From NCBI GenBank assembly GCA_965223845.1, contig CBDCXR010000004.1, positions 4,608,001 to 4,672,000 on the forward strand: DNA of 64,000 nucleotides, read 5' to 3'. The stretch comes from Planctomycetota bacterium (GTDB lineage Bacteria; Planctomycetota; UBA8108; SXIK01). The position numbers were made by a program, and so were the translations under genes. Each line of letters begins with the position of its first letter. Within the stretch, counting starts at the first letter, position 1. Under the pieces are notes generated by a model, which made no database searches, was not told the origin of the DNA, and saw only the letters and a program-made list of their open reading frames with translations. This document shows, piece after piece, positions 28,760-64,000 of this stretch.

Positions 28760-29239
28760 TCAGCTCCGATCGTTCAGCCGTCTCGTCTCCGAGCCTGCCG
28801 GCCGGCGCGTCGGTCGAAAGCATGCTCGGACGGCCGAGCCCTAAGTCGACCGACCGGTGTAGGACCGCGAACGCGGACAACCCGCGACACGTCGACGTCT
28901 GTCGACCGAGCTCCGTGACTCGCTCCGAAGTCGGGGCCCTCGCGACAAACCGCGACCGCACGGCAACATTGTCGAGTGAGGATTCCGGGGATACGAACTT
29001 CAATCCGATCATCGTCGTCAACAACGGACTGGATCACTTCGAGGGTTGGTCGGAACGGCAGAACCCAACAAATTCGTTCGGTTTAAGCGGCTCGAAGTCT
29101 AGACCGTCGACGAAGCGAGCGCACTCGAGCTTGTTCTGATTCTCTCGCGCTGAAGCAGCCGAGCGGCAGCGGAGGACGTCGCTTCCCGCTCGCGCTCGCG
29201 ACGGGCCGTCACTCGAAGCTTGCTCTATCCGCCGTTCGG

Positions 29240-39370: not shown

Positions 39371-42147
39371 TCTGGACTCGAAAGCCGCAAGAGTTCGGCG
39401 GCACAACGAGCCGTTGCACGGCGACTAGACCGACCGTCGCGCTGCGCTCGATCAGCGCGCTCGCGGTTTTCGTCGCGATGGCGCTCAGCGCGGCAGCCGA
39501 GGAGCCGGCGCCGGCGCAGGAATCGAGTCCCTCGACGCCCAGACCGCGCTGGACGACGTCCCGCGTTCGCGGCACGCCGGAACCGCCCCTCGCTTACACG
39601 GTCGAAAAGACGTTCCAGCGCGTCGCGTGGAAAGCGCCGATCTACATCATCGCGGAACCGGGAACGCAGGACCTTCTCGTCGTCCAGCAGGGCGGCGAGC
39701 GCGACCGTCCGTCGCGGATCCTTCGCGTCCGCGACACCGGGGAAGCGGACCGAGCCGAACTCTTTCTCGAGGTCCCCGGACGACTCGTCTACAGCGTGAC
39801 GTTCGATCCGAGGTACCGAGAGAACGGCGTGGTCTACGTGTTCTCGAACGGTCCGACGGGCGCAGGGGAACGCTTCAATCGCATCTCGCGGTACCTCGTC
39901 CGCGGGGATGAAGAACGAGCGTGCGATTCGGATTCCGAGAGATCCATCATCGAATGGCCCTCGGCGGGACACGACGGCGGCGACATGGTGTTCGGTCACG
40001 ACGGAATGCTCTACATCTCGTCGGGTGACGGCACGGGCGACTCGGACTCCGACGTCACCGGGCAGGACCTCTCGAATCTCCTGGCCGCCGTTCTTCGCAT
40101 CGACGTCCGATCAGCGGCCGAAGAGGGCGACGAGTCGAACGCTCCCGCGTACACGATCCCGTCCGACAATCCCTTCGTCGAGCATCCCGGAGCGCGCGGC
40201 GAAATCTGGGCCTACGGCCTCCGTAATCCGTGGCGGATGAGCATCGACCGGAAGACCGGACGGATCTGGGTCGGCACGAACGGACAGGACCTCTGGGAAA
40301 CGGCGCACTTGCTCGGACGCGGCGAGAACTACGGGTGGAGCGTCTACGAAGGAAACCATCCCTTCTACCTCCACCGCGAGCTCGGCCCGACGCCGTTCGT
40401 CCCGCCCACCCTCGAGCATCATCACCACGAGGCGCGCTCGCTCACGGGCGGGGTTGTCTATTACGGCGCCAAGATTCCAGATCTCGAGGGCGTCTATGTC
40501 TACGGCGACTACGCGACCGGGAAGATCTGGGGCGCGCGTCACGACGGTGCCCGGGTCACGTGGAAAGCCGAGCTCGCGGATACCTCGCTTCAAATTGCCG
40601 GTTTCGGCCTAGGTCATTCGGGCGATCTCTACGTCGTCGACCATGGCGGGGGCATCTACAAGCTCGTCCCTCGGCCTCCTCAAGGAGAGGATCGTTCTCC
40701 GTTTCCCCGTCGTCTGAGCGAAACCGGGATCTACGAATCGGTCGCCGAGCACCGCGTCGCGCCCGGCATCATTCGCTACTCCGTGAACGCTCCCGGCTGG
40801 AACGACGGCGCAGACGTCGATCGTTTCGTTGCGCTCCCGGGCGATGCGCGTGCGTCGTTCGCCGGCTCGCGCGGCTGGAACTTTCCGAACGGTGCCGTGC
40901 TCGTGCAGACCCTCTCTCTCGCCGGACGGAGAGTCGAAACACGCCTTCTCCACCGCGAGAGGAACGAGTGGCGCGGCTACTCGTTCCGCTGGCTGAACGA
41001 TGGGAGCGATGCCGAGCTCGTTCCCAAGAACGGCCTGACCACCGAGCTCGCTCACACAGCCGGAGCATCCGACGAGTCTTCACCCGGTGGGCGTACGTGG
41101 CGATTTCCCTCGCGAACGGAGTGCCTGTCGTGCCATTCGCGCGCGGCGAACTTCGTCCTCGGCCTTCGCACCGCGCAGGTCAACCGCAGCCAAGACTTCG
41201 GACACGGACCGGAGAATCAACTCCGGGCGTTCGTTCGCCTCGAGGCACTCGCGGGCGCTCCGGCCTCCGCTCCCGACGGACTGAGTCAGCTCGTCGATCC
41301 GTACGACGAGACAGCCGGTCTCGAACTCCGAGTTCGCTCGTACCTCGACGCGAACTGCGCGGGCTGTCACGTCGAAGCAGGCGGGGGGAACGCGAAGCTC
41401 TCGCTAGCCCACTCGACAGCGCTCGCCGGCACAAACTTGATTTCGCACCGCCCGCAGCACCATGCATTTGAGATTGCGAACGCGATGATCGTCGCGCCCG
41501 GGAACCCCGAGCGCTCGGTCCTCCTCCAGCGCTTGAGTCGGCGCGGGAGCGGTCAGATGCCGCCGCTCGCCAGTCTGCGAGTCGACGAACGCGCGGTCAC
41601 GCTCGTCCGCGCTTGGATCGAGAGTCTCCCGGTGCCGGAGAGGCGAATCGTTCGAGACTGGACCCTGAAGGATTTCTCCGGCCGCGTCGGGGAGGTTACG
41701 GCAAATCGTTCCTTCGCGGCGGGGCAGGCCGCGTTCGAGTCGACTGGGTGTACGCAGTGCCATCGGTTCCGCCGGAAAGGTGGCGGTGTCGGACCCGATC
41801 TGACGAACCTCGGGAGCCGCATGACGCCCGAGAAGCTGCTCGAAGCGCTGATCGAGCCTTCGAAAACCATTGCCCCGGGTTACGCAACGACGATCGTGCA
41901 GACGAGCGACGGCGAGGTCTACACCGGGCGCATCGACAGCGAAGACGAGGACGGAATCGTCCTTCGCACGGTGGCATCGTTCGCCGAGCCGACGAGAATC
42001 GAGAAGAGCGAGATCGTCGATCGGAGTGCGTCAACGGAGTCGATCATGCCGGCCGGAGCGCTCGACACGCTCGAGGCGCACGAGGTCCTCGATCTGCTCG
42101 CGTTCCTGCTCGCCGGCGGCTCGCGCGAGCACCCGGCGTTCGAGTAA
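39367..42147 (+). CDS. Glucose/sorbosone dehydrogenase-type beta-propeller fused to cytochrome c domains (3 CxxCH)
   Basis: HDGGDMVFGHDGMLYISSGDG, EIWAYGLRNPWR, NYGWS; CLSCH, CAGCH, CTQCH; GTG start overlapping the upstream TGA is inferred. Confidence 0.88.
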   Translation: MIWTRKPQEFGGTTSRCTATRPTVALRSISALAVFVAMALSAAAEEPAPAQESSPSTPRPRWTTSRVRGTPEPPLAYTVEKTFQRVAWKAPIYIIAEPGTQDLLVVQQGGERDRPSRILRVRDTGEADRAELFLEVPGRLVYSVTFDPRYRENGVVYVFSNGPTGAGERFNRISRYLVRGDEERACDSDSERSIIEWPSAGHDGGDMVFGHDGMLYISSGDGTGDSDSDVTGQDLSNLLAAVLRIDVRSAAEEGDESNAPAYTIPSDNPFVEHPGARGEIWAYGLRNPWRMSIDRKTGRIWVGTNGQDLWETAHLLGRGENYGWSVYEGNHPFYLHRELGPTPFVPPTLEHHHHEARSLTGGVVYYGAKIPDLEGVYVYGDYATGKIWGARHDGARVTWKAELADTSLQIAGFGLGHSGDLYVVDHGGGIYKLVPRPPQGEDRSPFPRRLSETGIYESVAEHRVAPGIIRYSVNAPGWNDGADVDRFVALPGDARASFAGSRGWNFPNGAVLVQTLSLAGRRVETRLLHRERNEWRGYSFRWLNDGSDAELVPKNGLTTELAHTAGASDESSPGGRTWRFPSRTECLSCHSRAANFVLGLRTAQVNRSQDFGHGPENQLRAFVRLEALAGAPASAPDGLSQLVDPYDETAGLELRVRSYLDANCAGCHVEAGGGNAKLSLAHSTALAGTNLISHRPQHHAFEIANAMIVAPGNPERSVLLQRLSRRGSGQMPPLASLRVDERAVTLVRAWIESLPVPERRIVRDWTLKDFSGRVGEVTANRSFAAGQAAFESTGCTQCHRFRRKGGGVGPDLTNLGSRMTPEKLLEALIEPSKTIAPGYATTIVQTSDGEVYTGRIDSEDEDGIVLRTVASFAEPTRIEKSEIVDRSASTESIMPAGALDTLEAHEVLDLLAFLLAGGSREHPAFE

Positions 42148-49738: not shown

Positions 49739-51280
49739 ATGCGAGTGTTTCGAGCGGGCCTCCTCGCCCTCCTGGTCGCGGTGCTCAGCGGGTCTGCGCT
49801 CTCCGCCGAAAGCCGTCCGCCAACCAACATCGTCTGGATCATCGTCGAGGACATGTCGGCGAACTTCGGCTGCTACGGCGAGAAGACGATCGCGACACCG
49901 AACGTTGATCGCCTCGCGCGCGAGGGGATCCGATTTACGAACGCGGTTGTCACGGCGCCCGTCTGCTCGGCCGCGCGTTCTGCGCTCATCACCGGCATGT
50001 ATCAGTCGTCCATCGGAGCTCACCACCACCGCAGCGGCCGCGGCGTGGAGAAGATCCGACTCCCCGATCACGTGAGGACGGTGCCGCGTCTCTTCAAGAA
50101 CGCCGGGTATCTCGTCCTCAATCTCTCGATCCAAGAGTTCGCCGGCCCGTCCCCGAACGAAAGCCGTGCCGCTGCACGGACGCGGGGTCAGGGGAAGAAC
50201 GGCACGCGCGTGAGAATCGCGAAGACCGACTACAACTTCGAGTGGGACGCGGACGATTTCGATCACACGCACTGGTCCTCGCGCCCGGAGGGGCAGCCGT
50301 TCTTTGCGCAGGTCCAGCTCCGCGGGGGAAAGCTCCGCGGCGGCGGCGACGGCAAGCGCTGGCCGAAAACCGTCGAGAAGACACTCGGGAGCACGACACC
50401 GGCAAGCGCGGTGCGCCTACCCCCGTATCTGCCCGCGGATCCCGTCATCGTCGAGGACTGGCGGCAGTATCTCGACGCCGTGCGCTTCACGGACCATGAG
50501 GTCGGGCGCATCGTCGAGCGGCTGCGGGAGAGTGGCGAGCTCGAGCGGACCTACATCTTCTTCATCACCGATCACGGCATCAGTCACGTCCGCAACAAGC
50601 AGTTCTGCTACGACGGAGGCGTCCACATCCCCTTCGTGGTTCGGGGACCCGGCCTCGAGCCCGGCACGACGCGCGAGGACCCGGTCGAGCACATCGACCT
50701 CGCCGCGACCTCGCTCGGTCTCGCGGGCGTAGCGATCCCCGGGTGGATGCAGGCGCGGAACGTGCTCGCGAAGAACTATCGGCCGCGGACGTTCGCATTC
50801 TCGGCTCGCGATCGCTGCGACGAAACCGTCGACCGGATCCGCTCGGTGCGGAGCGGACGCTACAAGTACATTCGCAACTTCTACCCGAAGCGACCGTATC
50901 TTCAGCCGAATCGCTACAAGGACAACAAGCCGATCCTGAAGGCGATGCGACGTCTTCACGCGGCCGGCGAGCTGAATGCCGAGCGAGCGCGCATCATGGC
51001 GGAGTCGCGACCGCCAGAGGAGCTCTACGACCTTCGGGACGATCCGCACGAAGGGAAGAATCTAGCCGCGTCGGTGGAGCACCGACCACAGCTCGAGAGG
51101 ATGCGAGCGGCGCTCGATGACTGGATCCGAGCGACGAAGGACCGCGCTGAGAGCCCCGAGCCCGCTGCGATGTACGACAGCGATATGGCGAAGTACCTCA
51201 AAGAGAAGCGCGGGGAGCAAGGGGAGATCTTGCGGCGCAACATCGCGACGATGAAGGCTTGGGCGCGTGCGGGTCGCTAG
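49739..51280 (+). CDS. Sulfatase (S1 family), secreted
   Basis: NIVWIIVED, PVCSAARSALITGMY, TDHG, EELYDL. Confidence 0.92.
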   Translation: MRVFRAGLLALLVAVLSGSALSAESRPPTNIVWIIVEDMSANFGCYGEKTIATPNVDRLAREGIRFTNAVVTAPVCSAARSALITGMYQSSIGAHHHRSGRGVEKIRLPDHVRTVPRLFKNAGYLVLNLSIQEFAGPSPNESRAAARTRGQGKNGTRVRIAKTDYNFEWDADDFDHTHWSSRPEGQPFFAQVQLRGGKLRGGGDGKRWPKTVEKTLGSTTPASAVRLPPYLPADPVIVEDWRQYLDAVRFTDHEVGRIVERLRESGELERTYIFFITDHGISHVRNKQFCYDGGVHIPFVVRGPGLEPGTTREDPVEHIDLAATSLGLAGVAIPGWMQARNVLAKNYRPRTFAFSARDRCDETVDRIRSVRSGRYKYIRNFYPKRPYLQPNRYKDNKPILKAMRRLHAAGELNAERARIMAESRPPEELYDLRDDPHEGKNLAASVEHRPQLERMRAALDDWIRATKDRAESPEPAAMYDSDMAKYLKEKRGEQGEILRRNIATMKAWARAGR

Positions 51281-51372: not shown

Positions 51373-54180
51373 TCAGTCCGATCCTGAAGTCGCCGGCGCG
51401 CCGAAGAACGTCGCCGCGTTCCCGCGAAGCCCCCCGTCGGCGTCGATCCACGAGTCGAGGACGATTCCCGTCGATGGATCCGTCAGGCGGCGGATCAGAG
51501 TCTGACCGAGCGGTCCGCAGACGTCGGGATCCGTCGCGCCGTCCCGGAGGTTCGGACCCGCGCCCGGTTCGAGAAATGCGTGATTGTTTGAACCGTTCGA
51601 GACGCCGTTTTCGTTCACGATGCGATCGAGGTTGAATCGGACGCTCGCCGGGTCGAACACCTTCGATGCAGGTGCGACGTCGTCGCAGCCGTACCGATTG
51701 ACATCGTTGTCGAGCGGGTTGACGGCGCAGCCGTTCGCGTCGAACAGATAGAGTCCGGTGCCGAGCCCCGCGACCATGTGCACCCAGAAGGGCGAATCCA
51801 TTTGATTGCCGGGATTGCGTCCGATGTGCTCCTGGAGAAGAGCGAAGTCGAGCGCGCCGAAATCGTTCGCCTGAATCGCCGTGCGAAACGTGTCGTACTC
51901 GGTCCCGTACTGAGTGATCGCGTTCTCGGTCAGATGGCAGCTCACGCAGTAGCGCGGCCCTTCGTTGTCGTCGGTCACCCGACCGCGGATCGAGTGCGGC
52001 ATCATCGCGTTATGGCTTAGCGATGGATACGGGTTCGACGGATCGTTCCCGGAGCCGTTGCGGTCATTGAACGCGAAGACATCCGAGCGGACGTCGTTCT
52101 GATCGCGGTAGCGGAAGAACGTCTCCGTGTTCGGGCTGATCGGGCTGATCTTGTTGTGAGCGTCCACGCCGAGCTGAAATGGGACCGGGGTCTGGTAAAC
52201 GAACTCGGCGAAGCGCTCGCGGAAGACGATGCGATCCCCCGTGATGTTGCTGAAGTTATTCCCCGTGTTGTACTCGCCCTCGAGGTGACAGCCGATGCAG
52301 CCGTTCGTCCAGGAAGCGTGGCAGGAGACGCAGCTCATATTGTCGCCGTGGCTGAAGCCCGACGTCACGCCGCCGGTTTGCTGCGGACCGATTCCCGTCG
52401 ACGGATCACCGTCGGCCCGCCCCATCGCGTACGACGCGCGTTCGTTGTAGATCGGCTGTCCGTCGAGCGGGTTCGTCCGCCCATTGTCGACGACGACATC
52501 GCGCGTCTGCGGGACGTAGTGGCGCCGTCCGGTCAAGCGGCTCACGAGGAAGTAGTGCCCGGCCCCGTCTCGCGTCACATGACGGAGCGGCTGACCGTCG
52601 GAGTCCGTCGCCATGACGGCGAGCCGGCCGTCGTACGTCGTTCCGGTCGTCGTCTGGGCGTAGGCCTCTGCCGTCCCGTGGCAGCTCTCGCAGCGGATGG
52701 CGACCGCCTGCTCCTGCCGACTCAGAATCTGGAGATCGTTCGGATCGCCGACTCGACCGCCGTGGAGATCGTGACTGCCATGGCAGTCGATGCAGCCGAG
52801 ACCGGCCTCGTAGTGGACGTCCGGCGGCGTGTCGTCGCGAAGGTCGCCGTCGTAGTCTTCCATGAGGAGGTACTGAGCGCCGTTTCGCCCGTTGAAGGTT
52901 CGATTGCCGACGACCGGGTCGAAGAGACGCGTGTCATTGAAGCTGAACTGAAAGCGCACGGGGTTCGCGGGGTATTGCACTCGCCGGGCGACGTCCCGGT
53001 TCTGATCGAGACGGATTCCCCAGTACTGCATCACCGTTCGATTCGATCCCTGATGGCAGCCCGCACAGGTGTAGTCGTCGATTCCCTCGACGACCTCACC
53101 GCTCGGGAGAGTCTGCGCGATGCTCGCGATCATGTGACGACGCACGTGCGCTCGCTCCGGCGGATCGATGTCGTCGGGATCGAGGGGCTCGAACTTATTG
53201 ATCCGCGGGTCCGTACTCCGGCTGCGCCCGTCGAGCGAGTAGCGCATATGGCACGCGGTACAACCCGACGAGCGGAAATCGCCGTAGCGGTTGTTCGCCC
53301 CCGCGCTCCCGAGATGACAATCGCCGCAGGTGAACGCCACCTGCTCGTGGTAGAGATTCGCTAGCGGCGATCCCGTCCGGAGCCGTCCGTCGGGCTCGAA
53401 GCTGAGCGGGAGGTCCGTCGACGCGTAGACTCCCGAATTGTTGAAAATATCGTCGGCGTTCGTTCCGCCGAATCGACTGAACACCGGAAACTCCATGAGC
53501 TCCGCGACCGGCCCCACACGGTTCGGATCGAATGCGAACGCCGCATCCAGATTCGCGCGGAACCCGAGATCCGCGGCCGTGTTCTCGTAGAGACCGACGT
53601 TTCCCGGGACCTGATTCGGGACGCCCGCCGCGTACATCGCACCCGACAGAACGCCGGCTTCCGTCGCGAGAAGACTCTTCTCTACGCAGTCGACGTGCGG
53701 CTTGTGGCACTGACCGCAGCTGCGTCCGTCCGTGACGACGCGGAGATCGCCGGGATTGACGAATTGGAGGTAGTCGAGCGCCGAGTACGTCGTCCCGCCG
53801 ACGTCGTAGTCCGCGAACTTGTCGATTCCGGTGAGCGTGAGTCGGTTGAAGTACGCATGGCGATTGAAGCGCTGATTCTCTCGGTCCCCGATTTCCGGTG
53901 GCGGCGGAACGTGGGCGCCGAGCTCCGTCTGCGCGGTGCCGTCACCGCCGTGACACTCGGTGCACTTCAGCGTGGCCGCGCCGGGGAACGGATGCGGATT
54001 CTCGAGTCCCGGACCCGAGTAGTCGTCGTGCAGCCCGCCGTTGTGACAACGCATGCACGACTCGGCGGTAGCCGCCTGCGGCGTTACTCGCTCGTCCTCG
54101 TCACCGGAATTGTCCGAGCAGCCGCACAGAGTGAAGCCGACCAGCGTGGCGCTCAGCGCTAGTGTCGCGAGTCGTTCCAT
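51373..54180 (-). CDS. 11-heme c-type cytochrome lipoprotein (about 935 aa)
   Basis: Lipobox TLCGC; CMRCH, CTECH, CGQCH, CGDCH, CTACH, CAGCH, CIDCH, CESCH, CVSCH, CIGCH, CVSCH. Confidence 0.9.
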   Translation of the reverse strand: MERLATLALSATLVGFTLCGCSDNSGDEDERVTPQAATAESCMRCHNGGLHDDYSGPGLENPHPFPGAATLKCTECHGGDGTAQTELGAHVPPPPEIGDRENQRFNRHAYFNRLTLTGIDKFADYDVGGTTYSALDYLQFVNPGDLRVVTDGRSCGQCHKPHVDCVEKSLLATEAGVLSGAMYAAGVPNQVPGNVGLYENTAADLGFRANLDAAFAFDPNRVGPVAELMEFPVFSRFGGTNADDIFNNSGVYASTDLPLSFEPDGRLRTGSPLANLYHEQVAFTCGDCHLGSAGANNRYGDFRSSGCTACHMRYSLDGRSRSTDPRINKFEPLDPDDIDPPERAHVRRHMIASIAQTLPSGEVVEGIDDYTCAGCHQGSNRTVMQYWGIRLDQNRDVARRVQYPANPVRFQFSFNDTRLFDPVVGNRTFNGRNGAQYLLMEDYDGDLRDDTPPDVHYEAGLGCIDCHGSHDLHGGRVGDPNDLQILSRQEQAVAIRCESCHGTAEAYAQTTTGTTYDGRLAVMATDSDGQPLRHVTRDGAGHYFLVSRLTGRRHYVPQTRDVVVDNGRTNPLDGQPIYNERASYAMGRADGDPSTGIGPQQTGGVTSGFSHGDNMSCVSCHASWTNGCIGCHLEGEYNTGNNFSNITGDRIVFRERFAEFVYQTPVPFQLGVDAHNKISPISPNTETFFRYRDQNDVRSDVFAFNDRNGSGNDPSNPYPSLSHNAMMPHSIRGRVTDDNEGPRYCVSCHLTENAITQYGTEYDTFRTAIQANDFGALDFALLQEHIGRNPGNQMDSPFWVHMVAGLGTGLYLFDANGCAVNPLDNDVNRYGCDDVAPASKVFDPASVRFNLDRIVNENGVSNGSNNHAFLEPGAGPNLRDGATDPDVCGPLGQTLIRRLTDPSTGIVLDSWIDADGGLRGNAATFFGAPATSGSD

Positions 54181-54286
54181 CGCATTCCACCGTTCAAGCC
54201 CAGTCGGGCCCGTAAACTCTGCGCCCGCTATCGCAGTCGCCGGCTCACGAACCGCCCCGATGCAAAAAGTTCCCGCGGGGGGGAAT

Positions 54287-54303
54287 CGCAATCGGTACGC
54301 CAA
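54287..54303 (-). promoter_or_regulatory. Putative sigma54 promoter of the 11-heme cytochrome gene
   Basis: Minus strand TTGGCGTACCGATTGCG (TGGC-N7-TTGC). Confidence 0.6.
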
Positions 54304-54325
54304 GACGCGATGGGATTCGGCCCCT

Positions 54326-54360
54326 CGGGACATCCGCTCGAGAATCTCGAGGATGTCCCG
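54326..54360. promoter_or_regulatory. Long imperfect palindrome (terminator or activator-binding site)
   Basis: CGGGACATCC(GC)TCGAGA-A-TCTCGA-GGATGTCCCG: 16-bp stem with a 2-nt bulge. Confidence 0.5.
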
Positions 54361-54472
54361 GAAGGAGAGTAGGATGCGAATCGGCGGAGCGCTCATCGGC
54401 GCGGACGGAAAGCCGCGCTTAGGGCGGCGATCGACCAGGACGATTTACCTGACCGGGGCGATTTCGGGGCAG

Positions 54473-56161
54473 CTACCAGCGGAACGTGAGCGCGACGTCC
54501 GCGAAGATCCGGCTCGCTTCGCTCGTATCCGAATACGCGACTCCGGCGGCGAGAAGCCAGGCGCGGGAGAGACGCCAGTGGAAGCGGAGCGAAGCGTCGA
54601 CGACGTGCTGCTCGGCGCGGACTCGACCGAAGAAGTTCGCCCCGCGGGTGGTGAACTCGGTGTAGCGGTAGCCGACGGCGGGCTCGACGATGAATCGATG
54701 CTCAGCGAAGGGAAGATAAAACGAGACGCGGCCGCCGAAGCCCTCGTGCCGCATTCCGTGAAGATTAAAGGCCGATAGCGTCAGACTTCCCGCGGGGAGA
54801 CCCGGCAGTCCGACGCGCGTGAGCGAGACGTTGCCGCGCCAAACGTTGTCCGCGCTCGAATCGAGGAACGCGATCTCTTCGGAGAGGCGCAGGCTACCCG
54901 GAAGCTGATGCGAAGCTCCGATCCAGTAGCGCCAGAAGCCCGAGTCGATCCACTCGTTCTCGTCGAGGTTGCCGATGTCGAGCGCGTCGCGTTCGCCCTC
55001 GGTATCGGGGAGCTCGTGCTTGTCCACGCCGCCGCGGAGTGTGAGCGCGGGACCAAAATCGCGAGTGAGGAGAACGTTGAGTCGTGTCAATCGAACCGGT
55101 CCGCGGTCCGCCTCGGCTGCACCGACGTCGACGTCCACCTCCGACGAAGCGTACGCCGTGAACTCGTCGCGATCGAGCCGCTGATCGACGAGGAGCGCGA
55201 GTCGGTCGGGGCTCCAGCGGTAGAGGGAGCCGAGAAGTCCGGCCGTCATCGAATAGTACTTCGCCCCCGGATCCCCGGACTCGTATGTGAGGTACGGGAC
55301 GACGACGAGCTCGTCCGCGCGGAAGTCGAGATCGTTTCTTCCCGGACGGAAGCCGACCACCGACCCGAAGCGCGTCGCATCGCCGGTGACCTGCTCCGCT
55401 TGAATGCCATCGATGAATCCGACGCCGGGCAGCTCGCGAGGGACGAATCGTCCGAACCGGAGCCAACGCTCGTCGATCCGGCGGTGGAAGGAGAGGCGAT
55501 AGAGCTCGAAGCGAAGTCCCTCGTAGCGGCTGCCGTCGTAGCCGGATCCGTCGCGAAACGCGACATCTCCCGACCATTCGAGCGTCCAGGGCGTGCCTTC
55601 GACGTACTCGAGGGAACCGCTCGAACGCGCACGGGTCGCGTAGAAGTCGTGCTCGTCGGACGCCATCTGATACGCCTGCCGGAGCGTGAGCGAACCTTGA
55701 AAGAGATTTCGCTTCTCACTCGTCCCGGTCGAGTAGAGCTGGAGACGACCCATCAAGGGAACGAAGGAATCGTCCCGATCGCCCTTGAGCGTTTTCGATC
55801 GCTCCCGCTCGCCCTCTTCCGCGACCGCCAGGGCGTCGGCGTGGAGAATCAGATCATCTCCCGCTGCGAGCTTGTTCTGCCGGCGGTCCTCGACGATCTC
55901 GAGAAACACCGACGACTTCGACGTGAGACCGATCCGCACGGTCGCGACGCGATTCCCTTCGAACTCGAGCCAGCCTTCCCCGCCTTCGACGAGTTTCGTT
56001 CCGGAGCCGATCTCCACGTAGACGCCATCGGTCGTCTCGTAGAGATAGCGGCACGGGATCGCTGATTCGTCTCCGAACGCTCGAGACGCGGTGACACACA
56101 GCACGACGACGAGCGCCGCGCGAAGCGTGTGGTTCAGTGCTCTCGAGGACGCGGAAACCAT
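54473..56161 (-). CDS. Putative outer-membrane beta-barrel (porin of a porin-cytochrome complex)
   Basis: Signal peptide (ASRAFG); alternating aromatic/hydrophobic strands; BAM-type C-terminal ADVALTFRW; small N-terminal beta domain. Confidence 0.75.
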   Translation of the reverse strand: MVSASSRALNHTLRAALVVVLCVTASRAFGDESAIPCRYLYETTDGVYVEIGSGTKLVEGGEGWLEFEGNRVATVRIGLTSKSSVFLEIVEDRRQNKLAAGDDLILHADALAVAEEGERERSKTLKGDRDDSFVPLMGRLQLYSTGTSEKRNLFQGSLTLRQAYQMASDEHDFYATRARSSGSLEYVEGTPWTLEWSGDVAFRDGSGYDGSRYEGLRFELYRLSFHRRIDERWLRFGRFVPRELPGVGFIDGIQAEQVTGDATRFGSVVGFRPGRNDLDFRADELVVVPYLTYESGDPGAKYYSMTAGLLGSLYRWSPDRLALLVDQRLDRDEFTAYASSEVDVDVGAAEADRGPVRLTRLNVLLTRDFGPALTLRGGVDKHELPDTEGERDALDIGNLDENEWIDSGFWRYWIGASHQLPGSLRLSEEIAFLDSSADNVWRGNVSLTRVGLPGLPAGSLTLSAFNLHGMRHEGFGGRVSFYLPFAEHRFIVEPAVGYRYTEFTTRGANFFGRVRAEQHVVDASLRFHWRLSRAWLLAAGVAYSDTSEASRIFADVALTFRW

Positions 56162-56198
56162 CGGGATTCGGTCGGACGCGGGCGAAAGTGCCCCTTCC

Positions 56199-57086
56199 TC
56201 ACCTCCAAGCGACCGTGTTGTGACAGTCGAGGCAGTTCGTCGAAAAGCCATTCGCGACGTGATTCGGCGCGTTCACGTAATCGTTCTGGTGACAGGCGAA
56301 GCAGTTTGGATCGAGCGGTGTGAACTGCCCGCTCGCGTGACACTGCGTGCAGTCGAGACCGGCGTGCCCATCGACGAGCGGGAAGGCACTGTGGTCGAAA
56401 CCGCGCGCAGTCCAGGCGAGCGGGGTGTGACATCTCTGGCAGTCGTAGTGCCAGCCGTTGATTACGTGCGGCGGCGACGCGCGCGCGGCGTCTCGCTGAT
56501 GGCAGAATTCACACTCGGGCTGAGTGCCCCGATACTCTCCGAGCGTCGCTCGCTCGTGGCAGGTCTCGCAGGGGGTGATCGCGTGCGCTCCGACCAATGG
56601 AAACCGCGTGCGCGCGTGATCCGCGATCAGCCCGCCGGGACGCCAATGCTCCTCGCCGTGACACTCCGTGCACGCGTTGCCGAGATTGCCGCGGTGCGGA
56701 TCGACGTGACACCCTCCGCATCCCCGCGCAACGTAGGCCTGAACGGGTCCCAGATCGTTGTGGCAAAGAAGACAGTTCGTTTCTGCGTGGGCACCTCGAA
56801 GCGGATGACCGGTCTCCTTCTCGTGATCGAAGGTGAAATCGTCGCGAATCTCGTGCCAGGAGTCCGCGACGTGACAGGTCGAGCATTCCATCGAGAAGTT
56901 GTCGTGCGGCACCACGGGCCCCCACGACTGTTTCCAACTGTTCGGGGGCACGAAGGTCTCGCAGCACACGACTCCGAGAAACGCTGCAAGGGTCGCGAAC
57001 CACACGAGTAGCCGCCCCGCCCGAAGGAGGCGGACGCGATGCGCGCGCGGCTCGATGGAATCGAATCTATTCGGAGCTGAATTCAT
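56199..57086 (-). CDS. Decaheme c-type cytochrome
   Basis: 10 CxxCH in 295 aa; repeating (F)DH-x-T-x-FPL-x-GAH-x3-CxxCH units; N-terminal hydrophobic signal ending VVCC. Confidence 0.92.
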   Translation of the reverse strand: MNSAPNRFDSIEPRAHRVRLLRAGRLLVWFATLAAFLGVVCCETFVPPNSWKQSWGPVVPHDNFSMECSTCHVADSWHEIRDDFTFDHEKETGHPLRGAHAETNCLLCHNDLGPVQAYVARGCGGCHVDPHRGNLGNACTECHGEEHWRPGGLIADHARTRFPLVGAHAITPCETCHERATLGEYRGTQPECEFCHQRDAARASPPHVINGWHYDCQRCHTPLAWTARGFDHSAFPLVDGHAGLDCTQCHASGQFTPLDPNCFACHQNDYVNAPNHVANGFSTNCLDCHNTVAWR

Positions 57087-58782
57087 GGCAGCTCTGACAC
57101 TCCGTTCCCAGCGGCTTGTAGTGAACGACCTCTTCGCCTTCGACCTCGACGCGGCGGTGACACTTCGAGCACTTCACCTTTTCGTGCGCTCCGTCGAGCT
57201 TGAACTGCGATTGCGTGTTGTGATCGAACGTCGTGATCGTCCAGAGCTCGAAGGATCGATGGCACGACGAACAGCTCTCGTAGTCGCGGAACTGGCCACG
57301 GTGTACGTCGCGGTGGCAGCCGCCGCAGTCCCGCGGCGTCCCCTCGTAGCGACGCACGACGCCTTCGACCCCGGGGCTTTCGATCTGCACGTGGCAGTCG
57401 TTGCAAAGCGCCTTCGCGTGGCCACCCTCTAAGGCGTAGTTCGACGCCTTTGCGTGGTCGTACGGCCGGATCTCGAAGCTGACCGCGTCCTTTCGGTGGC
57501 AGGAGTCACAGTCGCCGGTTTCGATCTCGCGGCTGAACTGCGGTCCGTGAGGAGTCGCATGGCACCCCTTGCAGCTCTTGCTCGTCCCGACGAAGCGTCG
57601 CGTCTTCTCGTCGGCGGGAATCGTGTGACACGCCGAACACGCGGTCGCTCGATGCGCCCCGGAAAGGGCAAACGCCGAGGAATGGTCGTCGACTCCGAAC
57701 GCGGCGGGAAGGAATCCCGACGGACTGTGACAACCGACGCAATTCGCCCCCTTCTCGCCGAACTGCCCGAGGTGCTCGTCGCGGTGGCAGGCCGCACAAT
57801 TGAGCTGGTTTCGAGCGTAGCCGGGAACGGCCGGATCGTGATAGCGCTCCTCGAGCGTCAACTCGTGTGGATGGCATCCGGCGCAGGCGACACCGTCGTG
57901 CGGTACGCCGAGCTTGAATCCGGTCTGTGCGTGAAGCGCGTCCGAGACGTGGAGCATCGCGCCCCGCCAGTGACTCTCCGAAAGCTGGTGGCAATCGCGA
58001 CAATTGCCCACGAACGTGTGGTGAGGCGATCGATGGCAGCTTTCGCAGTCTCGGCCCCGCACCCGGTCGAAGGGAAACGGATGCGGACGACGCCGATCGT
58101 CAGCTTCCGGCAGTACGTGACACTCGGCGCACTCGAGGCGCTCATGCCCTCCCTCGAGCGGAAACTTCGCGCCGTGATCGAACCCGACCGTGGGACGGAA
58201 CCACTCCTGCCCGTGACACGAGCTGCAGTCTCCGCTGATGCCGTCGGTGTGCACATCTTCGTGGCAGGCGGTGCACTCCTGCGTGAGACCGAGAAAGGAC
58301 TCCGCTCGCTTGTGATGACCGAACTCTCCACCGAGAGAGAACTCGCTGTCGCGTTTTTCCGTATGGCACTCCGAGCAATCGAGCTGCTCGTGCTTGCCGG
58401 CGAGCTTGAACTCCGTGTGAGGATGGCGGTAGGCCGCTTTCACATATGGCCCCCACGACGCCTCGCTGACGAGGTCGAACGACGCGCCGTTGTGCTCCGA
58501 GTGGCACGATCGACACGCCACCTCATCGTCGAGGAGAAAATGGTGGATCCCGCTGCCGCCCCAGATCTGAGCGGCGATCTCCTGGTGGCAATCGAGGCAT
58601 CCTTCCGCGAGGCCGCCTTCGCTGTGGCAGTGAACGCACCCCTCGGCGGTCGTGAGCTTTCTCACCTTCGCGTGGGCAGACGAAAGTCCGCCGGGCATCG
58701 GTGCATACTTCGCGAGCATCGCCACGAGGACGAGAATGATCACGGTGCCGACGGCGATCGGTGTCTTGGGATTGAGAAGCAT
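57067..58782 (-). CDS. 20-heme c-type cytochrome with N-terminal membrane anchor or signal
   Basis: 20 CxxCH in 571 aa, arranged as triheme repeats with F-x-L-x-G-x-H linkers. Confidence 0.93.
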   Translation of the reverse strand: MLLNPKTPIAVGTVIILVLVAMLAKYAPMPGGLSSAHAKVRKLTTAEGCVHCHSEGGLAEGCLDCHQEIAAQIWGGSGIHHFLLDDEVACRSCHSEHNGASFDLVSEASWGPYVKAAYRHPHTEFKLAGKHEQLDCSECHTEKRDSEFSLGGEFGHHKRAESFLGLTQECTACHEDVHTDGISGDCSSCHGQEWFRPTVGFDHGAKFPLEGGHERLECAECHVLPEADDRRRPHPFPFDRVRGRDCESCHRSPHHTFVGNCRDCHQLSESHWRGAMLHVSDALHAQTGFKLGVPHDGVACAGCHPHELTLEERYHDPAVPGYARNQLNCAACHRDEHLGQFGEKGANCVGCHSPSGFLPAAFGVDDHSSAFALSGAHRATACSACHTIPADEKTRRFVGTSKSCKGCHATPHGPQFSREIETGDCDSCHRKDAVSFEIRPYDHAKASNYALEGGHAKALCNDCHVQIESPGVEGVVRRYEGTPRDCGGCHRDVHRGQFRDYESCSSCHRSFELWTITTFDHNTQSQFKLDGAHEKVKCSKCHRRVEVEGEEVVHYKPLGTECQSCHEFSSE

Positions 58783-60083
58783 CAGCGTCGTCCGAAGAGG
58801 TCACCGAATCCGAGTGCGATCGCGACGTGAAACACGATTCCGAACAAGAGAACGATCGCTAGCCACCGGTGGAAGAATCGCCATGCTCCGATGAGACCGC
58901 GCAGCTCGCGGCAGCGGACGAGCCAACGCCTCTCGCCCCAAAGCCGCACCGCGAGGGCGAGCGCGCGCTGCGCCTCCGAGTCCTGGCAGCGCTTGGCGGC
59001 ACGTTTCAGACGCGCGAGATCGCGCTGCCCTTCGGGATCTCCGCGCACGAGATTGACGATCGTGGCGATGGAAGCGAGCGGCCCTCGCCGTGAACCCTCG
59101 TCGTCGAGGGCGATGATCTTCGGATCGAAGCCGAGCTGGATCAGCTTCCGCCGGTAGACGGCGAGGCGGAGACGGATCGTCTCGAACTCGTTCTCCCGCC
59201 CTTCGAGGTAGCGCGGAACGTGCTTGTAGACAAAGCGGCCGGCCACGCCGCTCACGACGACGATGGCCATCGCCGTGAACGCGAGCATGCCGAGAACGCT
59301 GTGCGGGATAAACGCGGAGTGAAACGCGATGAGAATCGGACCGATGACGCCGGCGAGCATGTGGAACTCGAGCCATGCGCGAGTCGCGCTCGGGCGAACG
59401 CGCGCCGTCGATCGCTTGCGCACGAAGTAGTACATCGAGGCCGCCATGAGCGCCGTTCCGGCGAATCCAAGTGAGAGTCCGAGGACTCCCGATGGACGGA
59501 GCAGTGCGTGGAGATAGTGAAGCGGCCGCAGAGACGGAGTGAGGACGTAGTAACGCCAACCGATCACGGCGAGCACGACGGCGAGCGAGACGACGAAGGC
59601 GCCGGCCGCTCGACACGCCCACGTGAACCGCACACTGCGAGCTTCGTCGTCCGGGTGCGGCGCGAGTTCCTCGTCGATCTCGTGGTCGATCTCGCCTTCA
59701 ACGCGAGCGAGGAATCGGTCAAAGTCCGGATCTTCGAGCTCGTCCGCGCGACGAAGATACTCTTCGAAGACCGGGTCGAAGACCTCGCCCTCGCGGCCGA
59801 GGATCGTCCGCTTCGGATCGTCACTGCGAACGAAGAAGTCCTGCGCTTCGCGCTGAACCGCGGCGTCGTCGACCGCTTCTTCGCGCGCGGGAGTATCTGC
59901 AGAGTCGGCGGGAAAACGGGGCGCCGGATCCGCCGCCGGCGCGCTCTCGGCGCTGACCTCCGGCGGATCGGGAGACAGATCGACGTCGTCGGGAACGATG
60001 ACGACCGGTACGCGCTCGAGAATGAACACCTTGCGCCGAGTCGGCGCCGAGTCGCGCTCTAAGGTCTGCCCGTCGTCATTCAT
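58782..60083 (-). CDS. Inner-membrane protein with TM histidines (ferric-reductase / cytochrome b-like) and an acidic N-terminal extension
   Basis: About 5 TM segments; WLEFHMLAG, IAFHS, WRFFHRWL, FHV. Confidence 0.75.
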   Translation of the reverse strand: MNDDGQTLERDSAPTRRKVFILERVPVVIVPDDVDLSPDPPEVSAESAPAADPAPRFPADSADTPAREEAVDDAAVQREAQDFFVRSDDPKRTILGREGEVFDPVFEEYLRRADELEDPDFDRFLARVEGEIDHEIDEELAPHPDDEARSVRFTWACRAAGAFVVSLAVVLAVIGWRYYVLTPSLRPLHYLHALLRPSGVLGLSLGFAGTALMAASMYYFVRKRSTARVRPSATRAWLEFHMLAGVIGPILIAFHSAFIPHSVLGMLAFTAMAIVVVSGVAGRFVYKHVPRYLEGRENEFETIRLRLAVYRRKLIQLGFDPKIIALDDEGSRRGPLASIATIVNLVRGDPEGQRDLARLKRAAKRCQDSEAQRALALAVRLWGERRWLVRCRELRGLIGAWRFFHRWLAIVLLFGIVFHVAIALGFGDLFGRR

Positions 60084-61441
60084 GATCGCGTCCGGACGAA
60101 ATACTCCGCGGCGGCCGCTTCCTCGCCGCCGAAGGAGACGCCGATCTCTCGAAGGAGCGGATAGGGAGGCTCTCCCCCGGCGAACACGAACACGTAGTCG
60201 TTCGGGAGGAGAGTCGACTTCGTCGCACCGTTCTCGTCGATTGCGAGCGTCACGGAGTCGTCGTCGATGCGCTCGACGTTCGAGCGAAACAAGATCTTGA
60301 GTCGACCCTCGTCAGCGAAGCGCGCGACGCGCTCGGCGTTCCGCGCCTTCAGCCGAAAGAACGCGTCTCGACGATAGGACAGGGTGACGTCATTCTCTCC
60401 GTGGTCGGCGAGCGCCGTCGCCGCTTCGATTGCGCTGTCACCTCCGCCCACGACGAGGACGCGTTCTCGTTCGTACGTCGCAGCGTCGATGAGCTGATAG
60501 AGAACCTTCGCGCTCTCCTCTCCCGGCACTCCGAGACGTCTAGGAGTTCCGCGCCGACCGAGTGCGAGAAGCACGGTGCGCGCGGCGATCGTTCCCGTCG
60601 ACGTCTCAGCGAGAAGAGAGTCTCCGCTCCGCTCGACGCCGCGGAGCTTCACGCCCGAACGGACGCGCAGGCCGAAGCGGGCGACGATCTTTTCCCAGAA
60701 CTCGATCAGCTCTTCCTTGAGAAACTCTTCGCGAGCGACTCTCCCGTAGAGCGGTAGCTGCACCGGGCCGGTCAGGGTGAGCTTTCGCCGCGGGTACTTT
60801 CGAACCGTTCCGCCGATGTCGTCCTGATCGATCGTGATGTAGCTGAGCCCGCGCTCGATGGCTCGGAGGCTCGCGGCGAACCCCGCTGGACCTGCACCGA
60901 CGATGAGAACGTCGACGGCGTCGCTCTCGGGTTCGGGTGCCGACGCGAGGCGCTCGGCGATTGCGTCGATCGCCCGCGCGCCCTGCTCGACGGCGATGCG
61001 GATGAGCGCCATCCCGCCGAGCTCACCGGCGATGTAGACGCCGGGGACGGTCGTCTCGAACTGCTCGCTGAGAACCGGAAGATCGGTTCGGCCGCTCGTA
61101 TCGCCGAGCCCGATCGTCACCGCCGCGACGGGACAAGCGTCGGCGCAGCGCCCGTGCCCGATGCAGCGCGCGCCGTGGATCACCTTGGCGACGCCGTCGA
61201 CGAGACCGAGGACGTTTTCCTCGGGGCAGGCTTCGATGCAGCTCCCGCAGCCGATGCACGCGTACGGATCGATCTGCGGGTGCTGCGCGATGGGAACGCT
61301 CGAGCCTCCCGCGTGTGCCGCGCTCAGATGCTCTGCCGCCTGGTTCCGGTGATGCTCGTCGATCTGCCTCTGCCACACGGCGAGAAGCGCGAGCACCACG
61401 AGGAGGACAGCGAGAACGCCGAGAAGGGTGATGTAATCCAA
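60080..61441 (-). CDS. Membrane-anchored 2x[4Fe-4S] ferredoxin / thioredoxin-reductase-fold FAD-NAD(P)H oxidoreductase
   Basis: N-terminal TM; CIGCGSCIEACP and CIGHGRCADACP; GAGPAG; GGGDSAIE; SYRR; TTG start. Confidence 0.9.
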   Translation of the reverse strand: MDYITLLGVLAVLLVVLALLAVWQRQIDEHHRNQAAEHLSAAHAGGSSVPIAQHPQIDPYACIGCGSCIEACPEENVLGLVDGVAKVIHGARCIGHGRCADACPVAAVTIGLGDTSGRTDLPVLSEQFETTVPGVYIAGELGGMALIRIAVEQGARAIDAIAERLASAPEPESDAVDVLIVGAGPAGFAASLRAIERGLSYITIDQDDIGGTVRKYPRRKLTLTGPVQLPLYGRVAREEFLKEELIEFWEKIVARFGLRVRSGVKLRGVERSGDSLLAETSTGTIAARTVLLALGRRGTPRRLGVPGEESAKVLYQLIDAATYERERVLVVGGGDSAIEAATALADHGENDVTLSYRRDAFFRLKARNAERVARFADEGRLKILFRSNVERIDDDSVTLAIDENGATKSTLLPNDYVFVFAGGEPPYPLLREIGVSFGGEEAAAAEYFVRTRS

Positions 61442-61995: not shown

Positions 61996-63504
61996 ATGTG
62001 GATCCCGAAGTGGGAGCGTGACCGAGAGAACGGAGTCGACTCGCCCGTGCCGACTCAGGTCGTTTCGAACGAAGAGTTCATCCCGCGGCCACAAACGCGC
62101 GAGCAGAAGCAAGTGGAGCGACTGATCGGCGAACTCGCTGACGAGAAAGCGAAGCGTCTCGGACTCGACCGCCGCTCGTTTCTGCGCACCTCGATGGGGA
62201 TGGCGACGGCTTTTCTCGCAAGCAATATGGTCTACGGCCCCCACTGGGAGGTCAGCGCCGAGGAAACTCTCGAGCCCGCGGCGAACGACGAGCGCTGGCC
62301 GAAGGGAGAGTACTTCATCTTCGACGTACAGACCCACTTCACGAACGGACGCGCGATCGGATTCCGCAACATGGAGTTCATGCGCAACATGGGATTCGAT
62401 CTGAAGGACGACGCCGAGGCCTACGGCTTCCCGAACTTCGTGAAAGAGCTGTTCTTCGACAGCGAGACGAGCATGATCGTCATTTCCGGTGTCCCGGGGA
62501 AGGAAGAGCAGCGCGGAGTGGACGGCACGATTCTCGAAGGAAAGGACCGCGGCGGCGGTCTCCTTCCGAGCTGGCTCATGTCGATGCGAAAGGGCGAGAT
62601 CAACGGTCTCGCCGACTCACAACGCGCGCTTTGCCAGGGCAACTGCGCCCCCAATCACTATTGGGATCGGACGAAGAACGCGCCGGATCACACCGCGCTC
62701 TTCGAACAGATGGAGCGCGAGGTCAAGGACTACGGCATCGATTCGTGGAAGTGGTACTGCCACACGGACCCGGGACGATCCGGGGGCGGATTCAAGCTCG
62801 ACGACGAGACGATGACCTATCCCTTCTATGAAAAATCGAAGGCGCTCGGTCTCAAGATCTTCAGCGTGCACAAGGGATTCGCGTCGCAGTCGCGCCGTCT
62901 CGGTCATCTCGCGCATCCGCGCGACATCGAAAAGGCGGCGCTCGACCACCCGGATTTGACGTTCATCGTGTACCACTCGGCACTCAAGCACGGACCGATG
63001 GAGCCACAGTTTCGGCGTGACGGCTTCTACGATCCGACGACGGGTGATTTCGAATGGCACGCCGACTTGATGGCGATCAAGAAACGCAATCCGAAGCTGT
63101 CGAACGTCTACTGCGAGATCGGCTCGTCATTCGGAATGCTCGCGATAGCCCATCCCGAGATGTGCATGCACCTCATGGGCGCCAACATAAAGCACTACGG
63201 CGTCGACCACGTCATCTGGGGGACGGACTGCCTCTGGTGGGGATCACCGCAATGGGTGATCGACGCATTCAAGCGGTTTCAGATCTCCGACGAGTTGTGC
63301 GCTAAATTCGGATACAAGAAGCTCACGAAGGAAGACAAGGCCAAGATCTTCGGCCTCAACGCGGCGCGGGTGTACGGTGTCGACGTCGACGCGGCGCGGA
63401 AGGGAATCTCCCGCGACGGGCTCGACAAGCTGAAGACGGCTTACCTCGACCGCGGCGGCCACCGCGAGAACGCAGCCTACGGTTGGGTACGTGCGCATGG
63501 CTGA
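61996..63504 (+). CDS. Amidohydrolase-family TIM-barrel metalloprotein
   Basis: [43 protein letters not shown]; internal DRRSFL motif. Confidence 0.88.
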
Positions 63505-64000
63505 ACCGGTGGCTCCTCGCTTCGTTCTGCTCGTCACCGTCGCGCTCGCGGGTGGCTGCCACTCCCAAGCGGGCGGCAGTCTCAATCGGCCGGTCGACGG
63601 TCGCGCGGGCTTCGACTGGGGGTCGGATCACGTCGGACTCCCGCTTCCGGTGATGACGAGCGGAGATGAGTGCCTCTTTTGCCACCGGGAGAGGGTCGGA
63701 GCGACTTGGACGGACGACCCGCACGCACGGAGCCTCCGCGAGCTGACCGAAGACGATTCGGAGTACCGCGCCCTTCGCGAGTCGCCGCCGCGAGCCGCCG
63801 AGGCGGAATTCGTCCTCGGGTCGGGGGAGCGGACGCGTCTCCTCCGCTCGATTGGCTACGGCCGCCTCGCGCTCCTCGAAGACGATGACTGGAACGCGGA
63901 GACCTTCGCGGCGAGTTGCTCCGGCTGCCACGCGACCGGAGCCGACGCGGAGACGGGGACGTTCGTCGCGGTCTCCCTCGAGTGTTCGGTCTGTCACGGC
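63497..64000 (+). CDS. Multiheme cytochrome c lipoprotein, truncated by the window end (at least 3 CxxCH)
   Basis: Manual translation [21 protein letters not shown]...ECLFCH...SCSGCHATG...LECSVCHG; open to the edge; overlaps the amidohydrolase stop by 8 nt; absent from the ORF track. Confidence 0.85.

Follow-up and report, generated by a model that had tools for sequence, protein, structure and literature searches.

The six genes described here probably pass electrons from cytoplasmic NAD(P)H to the cell surface, in an outward export that would be independent of quinones and would conserve no energy. They lie in a stretch of 64,000 nucleotides from a Planctomycetota bacterium (assembly GCA_965223845.1, contig CBDCXR010000004.1), hereafter the window, where they form six co-oriented open reading frames (ORFs), head to tail on the minus strand between positions 51373 and 61441. 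We number them g1 to g6 from first to last:

g1, 60080-61441, minus strand: membrane-anchored iron-sulfur (Fe-S) flavoprotein of 453 aa.
g2, 58782-60083, minus strand: putative dihaem cytochrome b with five transmembrane (TM) helices, 433 aa.
g3, 57067-58782, minus strand: c-type cytochrome with 20 haems and an N-terminal TM anchor, 571 aa.
g4, 56199-57086, minus strand: decahaem c-type cytochrome of 295 aa (29.5 aa per haem).
g5, 54473-56161, minus strand: predicted outer-membrane beta-barrel of about 22 strands, 562 aa counted from the ATG at 56161.
g6, 51373-54180 (ORF to 54396), minus strand: lipoprotein with 11 haems, 935 aa (85 aa per haem).

The original prediction, made from the letters of the window alone, had proposed six overlapping or closely spaced genes with 20, 10 and 11 CxxCH motifs in the three cytochromes, and all of this was found as claimed. 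The junction between g1 and g2 is an ATGA overlap and that between g2 and g3 a TGATG overlap; g3 and g4 overlap by 20 nt, and 37 nt separate the stop codon of g4 from the ATG of g5, whose frame is open further, to 56251. The 41 CxxCH motifs of g3, g4 and g6 make up most of the 52 found in a six-frame translation of the whole window, and the other frames of the cluster region contain none. Only the position of the last gene had to be amended: the gene and its 11 haems stand, but its start had been placed at 54396 and is most likely Met73 (54180), because the signal peptide with its lipobox FTLCGC begins there and because 9/9 orthologues align from this residue, all with L-x-[GAS]-C. With this start, the gap between g5 and g6 is 292 nt. 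The TTG start of g1 is supported by its orthologues, which likewise open with 'MD' followed by a hydrophobic helix.

The evidence that these genes belong together comes from their conservation. A word-indexed protein search with g2 returned only 13 relatives, none of them named. A HMMER scan with a g2 profile matched 4444 representatives at E<=1e-3, of which 2649 remain at 1e-10 and 493 at 1e-30, and the family members are either about 290-450 aa or about 730-850 aa long. When genome contigs were scanned with the g2 alignment, 56 loci emerged, which by the labels of their records are Planctomycetota-type (38), Elusimicrobia (7), Kiritimatiellales/Pontiella (4), Verrucomicrobiota (2) or unclassified (4), the remaining one being a partial match in a gammaproteobacterial metagenome-assembled genome (MAG). 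We annotated these loci by ORF calling, BLAST with the six window proteins and a search with a g5 profile, counting as g3-like a cytochrome with at least 8 haems and as g4-like one with at least 5. Thirty-six loci are well flanked, with at least 3 kb upstream and at least 7 kb downstream of g2. In 34 of these 36, g1, a g3-like and a g4-like cytochrome and a g5 homologue all stand beside g2, so the reductase and membrane genes do co-occur with the cytochromes elsewhere. The two exceptions are a truncated remnant (L011) and a variant without a barrel (L050). The flavoprotein gene itself is present in 35/36; among all 56 loci it was not found in five, namely L011 and four whose contigs end at or near g2 (L037, L040, L048 and L056). 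Gene order is permuted in some cases, with g1 after g5 in L038, L041, L042, L049 and L052 and the order g4-g5-g1-g2-g3 in L026 and L031, and the set still stays together. The conserved unit is therefore real and widespread, and the module is common in bacteria of the Planctomycetes-Verrucomicrobia-Chlamydiae (PVC) group and in Elusimicrobiota.

The lipoprotein g6 behaves differently. It occurs in 8 of the 36 well-flanked loci, each of which has a short g4 (7-10 haems), whereas the g4 homologue of loci without g6 has 13-33 haems. What had been predicted as a six-gene unit is thus a conserved set of five, g1 to g5, to which g6 is an accessory. We also observed a reduced module in L047, L048 and L050 (Pirellulales and Planctomycetota MAGs), which consists of a 5-haem ORF, a short g2 (209 aa) and a 16-haem cytochrome followed by g1; in L050, both the barrel and g4 are missing within 10 kb.

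The strongest argument that g1 and g2 act together is their fusion. In 6/56 loci the two are read as a single continuous ORF of 725-910 aa, free of stop codons and of N. We then turned to a sample of 401 Planctomycetota genomes, of which 94 match the g2 profile at E<=1e-10 and 56 at E<=1e-48, many of the matches lying in open frames of 734-862 aa. All 15 further loci that we fetched from this sample carry the fusion, followed by a cytochrome of 20-26 haems, a g5 homologue (E 6e-15 to 8e-45) and a cytochrome of 7-38 haems; g6 is also present in 5/15. Among 13 long representatives in the protein library, Pyr_redox_3 lies N-terminal of the g2 part in eight, four of which have Fer4 too, and the other five gave no Pfam match. 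Being fused, the reductase must lie on the cytoplasmic side of the membrane protein. Judging from its domains, the fused protein would be a natural flavocytochrome b resembling NADPH oxidase (NOX), made as one polypeptide in 21 checked loci. An apparent triple fusion of g1, g2 and g3 suggested by Pfam matches (P0090, 838 aa) was discarded, as a frame-shifted Arg-rich stretch after TM5 reveals an artefact of assembly or gene calling.

The first protein, g1, consists of an N-terminal hydrophobic TM helix, a two-cluster ferredoxin domain and a domain for flavin adenine dinucleotide (FAD) and NAD(P)H that resembles thioredoxin reductase (TrxR) and YpdA. Pfam assigns it Pyr_redox_3 (8.6e-40) and Fer4_10 (1.8e-10), and it has no twin-arginine signal. 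The ferredoxin domain is placed as follows:

g1 ferredoxin domain, 61106-61279, minus strand: residues 55-112, with the motifs C62xxC65xxC68xxxC72P and C93xxH96xxC99xxxC103P.

The best solved relatives of g1 are YpdA/Bdr (7a76, 7a7b), TrxR-like reductases and ferredoxin-NADP reductases (FNRs) of the TrxR type. YpdA/Bdr, a bacillithiol-disulfide reductase, and thioredoxin reductase thus provide its nearest solved folds, but g1 remains below the equivalog cut-offs of NCBIfam (148.5 bits against 339.9 for TIGR04018 and 82.2 against 343.45 for TIGR01292). Moreover, all 7 cysteines of g1 lie in the Fe-S motifs. It therefore has no redox-active CxxC and is not a disulfide reductase. In an alignment of 39 g1 sequences (A4), six of these cysteines are invariant and C62 is conserved in at least 90%, while the GxGxxG and GGGDSA motifs for FAD and NAD(P) are invariant. 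In the second Fe-S motif, most sequences have His at the position of the second ligand, which points to a second cluster that is not fully Cys-ligated or that is of the 3Fe type. This position (g1 residues 95-96, window 61153-61158, minus strand) shows natural variation, with Asp in L018 and L024, Cys in L029 and L030, and Ile in L017. A stretch S-Y-R-[RK]-x2-F-x-R, conserved after the second Rossmann strand, resembles the NADPH-specifying HRRxxxR motif of E. coli thioredoxin reductase, and the motifs of g1 hence suggest NADPH as the donor. Residues 125-168 (window 60938-61069, minus strand), which precede GxGxxG, align with the C-terminal FAD motif of YpdA (7a76 280-324), and compared with its solved relatives the flavin domain thus seems to be a circular permutation.

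The membrane protein g2, the only gene of its type in this genome, consists of five TM helices preceded by an acidic cytoplasmic N-terminal extension of about 150 aa. Eight of its residues (W237, H241, H255, G279, G282, W401, H405 and H419) are invariant in the alignments of 12, 44 and 49 sequences (A1, A3 and A5). Six of them form two matching helix motifs:

g2 TM3 motif W237-x3-H241-x13-H255, 59319-59375, minus strand: invariant in A1, A3 and A5.
g2 TM5 motif W401-x3-H405-x13-H419, 58827-58883, minus strand: invariant in A1, A3 and A5.

The other two belong to the SGxxG motif on TM4 (S278-G-V-A-G282), in which S278 is the sole motif residue that varies. The pairs H241/H255 and H405/H419 would also provide two bis-His haem sites on TM3 and TM5 like those of the ferric-reductase family. 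Thus g2, which had been put forward as a membrane protein resembling haem b carriers, displays the full signature of a dihaem b protein, with four invariant histidines in two WX3HX13H helices and predicted haem sites. In g2, the loops rich in K/R share one side with the N-terminus, which places H241 and H405 near the cytoplasm and H255 and H419 near the periplasm. An AlphaFold2 (AF2) model of residues 150-433 has the five TM helices (predicted local distance difference test, pLDDT, 87.6; predicted template modelling score, pTM, 0.78). Its first-ranked match by VIA is the dihaem superoxide oxidase CybB (5oc0; Z 10.4, root-mean-square deviation 3.5, 134 residues aligned), followed by a designed two-haem bundle (7ah0, Z 10.3), STEAP1 (6y9b, Z 10.0) and STEAP4 (6hcy, Z 9.9). 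Dcytb, cytochrome b561, the cytochrome b of Hyd-1, FdnI and SpNOX (8qq7, Z 7.2) come lower in the top 50. We regard this fold comparison, made with a predicted model, as supportive but not decisive. The N-terminal extension carries a conserved motif of its own, P-[VI]-V-I-[VL]-P-[DE]-D-V-D-[IL] (residues about 25-37, window about 59970-60010, minus strand), which is found in split g2 proteins (8 of the 12 sequences of A1) but not in short forms. It may be a peptide to which g1 docks.

The pair formed by g1 and g2 resembles the design of NOX, SpNOX, FRE, STEAP and MsrQ-Fre, in which electrons from cytoplasmic NAD(P)H enter a flavin, cross the membrane by way of two bis-His b haems whose ligands are H-x13-H pairs on TM3 and TM5, and emerge on the opposite side. 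Those systems include both fused proteins and the split pair MsrQ-Fre, and here, too, the two forms occur. There are also clear differences. The membrane protein has five helices, not six. The reductase is of the two-Rossmann TrxR/YpdA type with two Fe-S clusters, not of the FNR type, and it is N-terminal in the fusions, not C-terminal. Neither g1 nor g2 matches the Pfam families Ferric_reduct, FAD_binding_8 or NAD_binding_6 at E<=0.01. Finally, the proposed acceptor is a chain of multihaem cytochromes, not O2, Fe(III) or MsrP.

The remaining genes would form this chain. In g3, Cytochrome_C7 matches in 5 stretches (Pfam), and the N-terminal helix and the PGxL[SA]xxHA motif that follows it are conserved in 25 orthologues; from its sequence, the helix looks more like a membrane anchor than like a signal peptide that is cleaved off. 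Wherever the contig continues, g3 follows directly after g2, and its intact orthologues have 16-26 haems. Among the haem motifs of g4, nine are invariant and one is conserved in at least 90% of the sequences of alignment A6; ten further histidines are conserved, as expected for the bis-His haems of a wire. Orthologues of g4 have 7-38 haems. The g4 protein may be lipid-anchored: the Cys at the end of the h-region of its signal (window 56965-57086, minus strand) is kept in the window protein and in 8/9 displayed orthologues (L001-L036), with a canonical residue at position -1 in only about half of the sequences. Searches of solved structures with the sequences of g3, g4 and g6 returned nothing at E<=0.01.

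The claim that 54473-56161 encodes a beta-barrel holds in the predicted structure. The AF2 model of g5 (pLDDT 82.8, pTM 0.76) shows a signal helix, a small beta domain (33-108) and about 22 strands (153-561). Foldseek gave 318 PDB matches at E<=1e-3, and all 50 of those listed are outer-membrane barrels, while VIA aligned the model with 22-strand TonB-dependent transporters and OprD/Occ porins at Z 15-17. No Pfam or NCBIfam family matched g5, including MtrB_PioB.

With its compact decahaem wire, large barrel and putative surface lipoprotein cytochrome, the outer half of the cluster recalls MtrCAB, MtoAB, the Pcc systems of Geobacter and the Ext systems. The family models set it apart from MtrAB, MtoAB, PioAB and Ext, since no cut-off was reached by g3, g4, g5 or g6: g3 scored 37.1 bits with the DmsE/MtrA model TIGR03508 (cut-off 192.2), which did not match g4, and g6 scored 83.7 bits with the ExtM model NF040943 (cut-off 800). 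In the Atlas, the feature neighbours of g6 are clusters of ExtM-like cytochromes and of cytochromes with an MtrC domain (0.90-0.94), which we take as a lead only. MtrCAB, MtoAB and the Geobacter systems are fed from the quinone pool by CymA, ImcH or Cbc-type proteins. As anticipated, no CymA/NapC, ImcH or Cbc-type quinol dehydrogenase is recognisable in the cluster by Pfam or NCBIfam searches, and the genome (91.7% complete) has no match to the NapC/NirT family.

Two types of clusters described from genomes come closest to the one in the window. PCC3 comprises a porin, one cytochrome in the periplasm with a median of 21 haems, another outside the cell with a median of 34, and an inner membrane protein of about 300 aa, IMP (He et al. 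2017, PMC5566968). The same text gives the signature of IMP as five TM helices with SGxxG on TM4 and WX3HX13H on TM3 and TM5, and likens the protein to the ferric-reductase domain while modelling it as linked to quinones. In a survey of Gallionellaceae, PCC3 periplasmic cytochromes have 21-27 haems and extracellular ones 10-35 (PMC10734462). The likeness is close: g2 has the IMP signature exactly, g3 (20 haems, 16-26 in orthologues) corresponds to the periplasmic cytochrome and adjoins the membrane protein, and there is an outer-membrane barrel with a second multihaem cytochrome (7-38 haems in g4 orthologues against 10-35; 10 in g4 and 11 in g6). Compared by published description, PCC3 differs in being reported without a flavoprotein, in Proteobacteria and as a quinone-linked uptake path. 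Here, an Fe-S flavoprotein is a constant member of the set and in many cases one polypeptide with the membrane protein, and this lineage adds the 11-haem lipoprotein.

The second type, PCC4, has a porin, cytochromes of 4, 5 and 10 haems, an IMP and other redox proteins, and its subgroup II, which includes Planctomycetes, has an Fe-S gene upstream of IMP (PMC5566968). The ptdABCDEFG operon (10.1101/2023.11.21.568154) encodes a 5-haem cytochrome, a porin, an FAD/NAD(P) oxidoreductase, a 4-haem cytochrome, a cNMP-binding protein that carries two [4Fe-4S] clusters, a ferric-reductase-like membrane protein and a 10-haem cytochrome. It occurs in Alpha- and Gammaproteobacteria, Nitrospirales and Planctomycetes, and its function is called there 'completely unknown'. 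The oxidoreductase, the two-[4Fe-4S] protein and the ferric-reductase-like membrane protein amount to the same logical input module as g1 and g2. The cytochromes differ, with 5, 4 and 10 haems against 20, 10 and 11 here (compared by description), and so does the Fe-S protein: that of PCC4/ptd has a cNMP-binding domain, whereas here the ferredoxin is one domain of a TM-anchored flavoprotein of the TrxR/YpdA-like kind, in which we found no cNMP domain. Placed by published descriptions, the window cluster is a PCC3 layout with a constant input flavoprotein of another family than that of PCC4/ptd. The earlier statement that no characterised system with this composition is known in Planctomycetota survives in the sense that none matches; compositions of this kind are in print from genomes, as PCC3 and as PCC4/ptd, the latter including Planctomycetes. 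Unassigned porin-cytochrome operons are also mentioned for Kiritimatiellaeota bins (10.1101/2020.04.01.018762). Other published candidates were set aside: the conduit of Verrucomicrobia in PMC5615132 is another cluster, with an 8-haem periplasmic cytochrome; EET1-4 of 10.64898/2026.05.27.727921 are other clusters, with 8-13 haems; the extracellular electron transfer (EET) of PMC11323493, which is based on flavins, is a different system; and PMC11475568 does not mention these phyla.

PCC3 and PCC4 were discovered in genomes of Fe(II) oxidisers and are drawn as uptake paths (PMC5566968). Together with the reversibility, in principle, of multihaem conduits, this raises the possibility of an inward flow, in which extracellular donors (Fe(II), a cathode or partner cells) would supply electrons for the reduction of NAD(P)+. 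We consider such a direction highly improbable. In Sideroxydans ES-1, both PCC3 clusters, of four genes each, are down-regulated on Fe(II) (PMC8788666). Electrons entering at about 0 to +0.2 V would have to climb to -0.32 V, against an inside-negative potential and with no coupling site, so that the suggestion in the original prediction that the system could run in reverse to make NAD(P)H appears thermodynamically implausible. The carriers of the module here are PVC and Elusimicrobiota lineages, which we take to be mostly organotrophs.

The path that we propose runs outward. Held at the inner membrane face by its N-terminal helix, g1 would oxidise NAD(P)H at its flavin and pass the electrons through its two Fe-S clusters. 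The two b haems of g2, between TM3 and TM5, would carry them across the inner membrane like those of the ferric-reductase domain of NOX, from haem b(N) (H241/H405) to haem b(P) (H255/H419). Anchored beside g2, g3 would span the periplasm with its 20 c haems, and g4, with 10 haems in or under the g5 barrel, would take the electrons through the outer membrane. In this lineage, the 11 surface haems of g6 would hand them to an extracellular acceptor, for example Fe(III)/Mn(IV) minerals or humic substances. The sequence NAD(P)H, FAD, Fe-S, haem b, haem c is the most economical reading because g1 is adjacent to g2 in 35/36 well-flanked loci and fused to it in 21.

A quinone-linked conduit would read the same genes differently. 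The membrane protein would be a quinol-oxidising or quinone-reducing cytochrome b, and g1 an auxiliary or a second input that keeps the haems reduced or serves regulation. The cytochrome chain would then join the quinone pool to the outside, with g2 in the part proposed for the IMP of PCC3 and PCC4. This is unlikely in our view. The fold neighbours of g2 include the quinone-reactive cytochromes b CybB, Hyd-1 cytochrome b and FdnI, and the PCC3 clusters of Gallionellaceae are described with four genes and no flavoprotein. On the other hand, the presence of g1 with g2 in 35 of the 36 loci and the 21 fusions are hard to explain if g1 is dispensable. We identified no conserved quinone-site motif in g2, which is a weak test.

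Several points weigh against the NAD(P)H-fed export. A quinone site on g2 may exist as far as its sequence tells, and the same motif class was modelled as a quinone-active cytochrome b (PMC5566968). The VIA scores of g2, around Z 10, are weak, since helical bundles below about 13 often match by arrangement alone; Foldseek found no match of the g2 model in the PDB at E<=0.001; and the sole Pfam matches of g2 stay under their thresholds, DUF4405 with 24 bits against 26.7 and Ni_hydr_CYTB with 16 against 30. MtrB is not among the listed fold matches of g5 from Foldseek or VIA, and the listing says nothing either way. A scan for promoters and terminators stayed at the level of chance, with 1 promoter-like site where 1.0 was expected and 7 terminator-like sites where 6.3 were. 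In full-text searches of the literature we found no experimental study of such a system and none that states a path from NAD(P)H to the surface for this type of cluster. Gene content, conservation, fusion, folds and motifs are observations, from which we infer every transfer, the cofactors, the direction and the acceptor. Finally, a NOX-like geometry would dissipate membrane potential, with an unclear physiological pay-off. The self-contained NAD(P)H conduit of the original prediction nevertheless remains the best-supported reading, owing to the linkage and fusion of g1 and g2, although its kind has already been described from genomes and g6 is not part of its core.

The energetics of this export deserve attention. 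NOX activity depolarises cells. In the conduit, the electrons of NAD(P)H would go out and its proton remain in the cytoplasm, and membrane potential would therefore be consumed, not built. The conduit makes more sense as an electron sink or a redox valve, in a cell that ferments or degrades sugars, than as a respiration that conserves energy. A geometry of g1 and g2 that conserves no energy would also suit an outward NAD(P)H-fed flow with another purpose, namely a reductive service at the surface, either the assimilatory reduction of Fe(III), in the manner of FRE or STEAP, or the reduction of toxic metals, metalloids or oxidants. The nearest known functional analogues of the design (NOX, FRE, STEAP and MsrQ-Fre) all serve non-respiratory reductions, and NADPH, suggested for g1 by its motifs, is the biosynthetic reductant. 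The faint likeness of g6 to ExtM, which belongs to a selenite/tellurite reduction operon, points the same way (well under the cut-off of its model, as given above; Atlas neighbour 0.91). Nevertheless, 30-70 haems and a barrel would be a large outlay for the sake of acquiring iron, genes for iron uptake or metal resistance are not found next to the cluster within the window, and g6 is absent from most loci. We thus find such a service improbable, and retain the disposal of electrons as the more plausible role of the export.

The surroundings of the cluster look unrelated to it. On the plus strand, it is flanked by a sulfatase (49739-51280) and an amidohydrolase (61996-63504). A further multihaem cytochrome gene lies elsewhere in the window: a partial ORF at 63491-64000 (plus strand), which runs past the window end, matches Cytochrome_C554 (Pfam, 6.4e-6), has 3 CxxCH and sits about 2 kb upstream of the cluster on the opposite strand. 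Three CxxCH lie near 41 kb (about 41000-42000, plus strand), within a long ORF (38692-42147), and four between 26 and 29 kb (about 26000-28800, plus strand). The genome contains genes for cytochrome c maturation. One of its two Cytochrom_C_asm (CcsA/CcmF-type) matches, G000:C4:4693201-4693692 (plus strand), is located about 24 kb past the cluster.

To our knowledge, the characterised EET pathways of Gram-negative bacteria all take their electrons from the quinone pool, by way of CymA, ImcH, CbcL or CbcBA. If the path proposed here is true, it would be a new entry point for EET: a direct gate for NAD(P)H across the inner membrane would have a different mechanism and different energetics, with no conservation of energy, and would act as a pure electron sink. 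It would also suggest a testable function for the IMP of PCC3, PCC4 and Ptd clusters, unexplained since 2017. The natural fusions, of about 740-800 aa, are compact targets for expression, spectroscopy and structure determination, and possibly a portable module from NAD(P)H to an electrode. More tentatively, and with slightly less than even confidence in the whole, we propose that g1 and g2 form a NOX-like flavocytochrome whose acceptor is a multihaem wire spanning the periplasm, a quinone-independent entry to EET that would let sugar fermenters and polysaccharide degraders dump electrons from NAD(P)H on iron minerals or humics, and that the PCC3 clusters of iron oxidisers may share this gate. 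Abundant and mostly uncultured carbohydrate degraders of the Planctomycetota, Kiritimatiellales, Verrucomicrobiota and Elusimicrobiota would then be potential reducers of iron and humics in anoxic waters and sediments.

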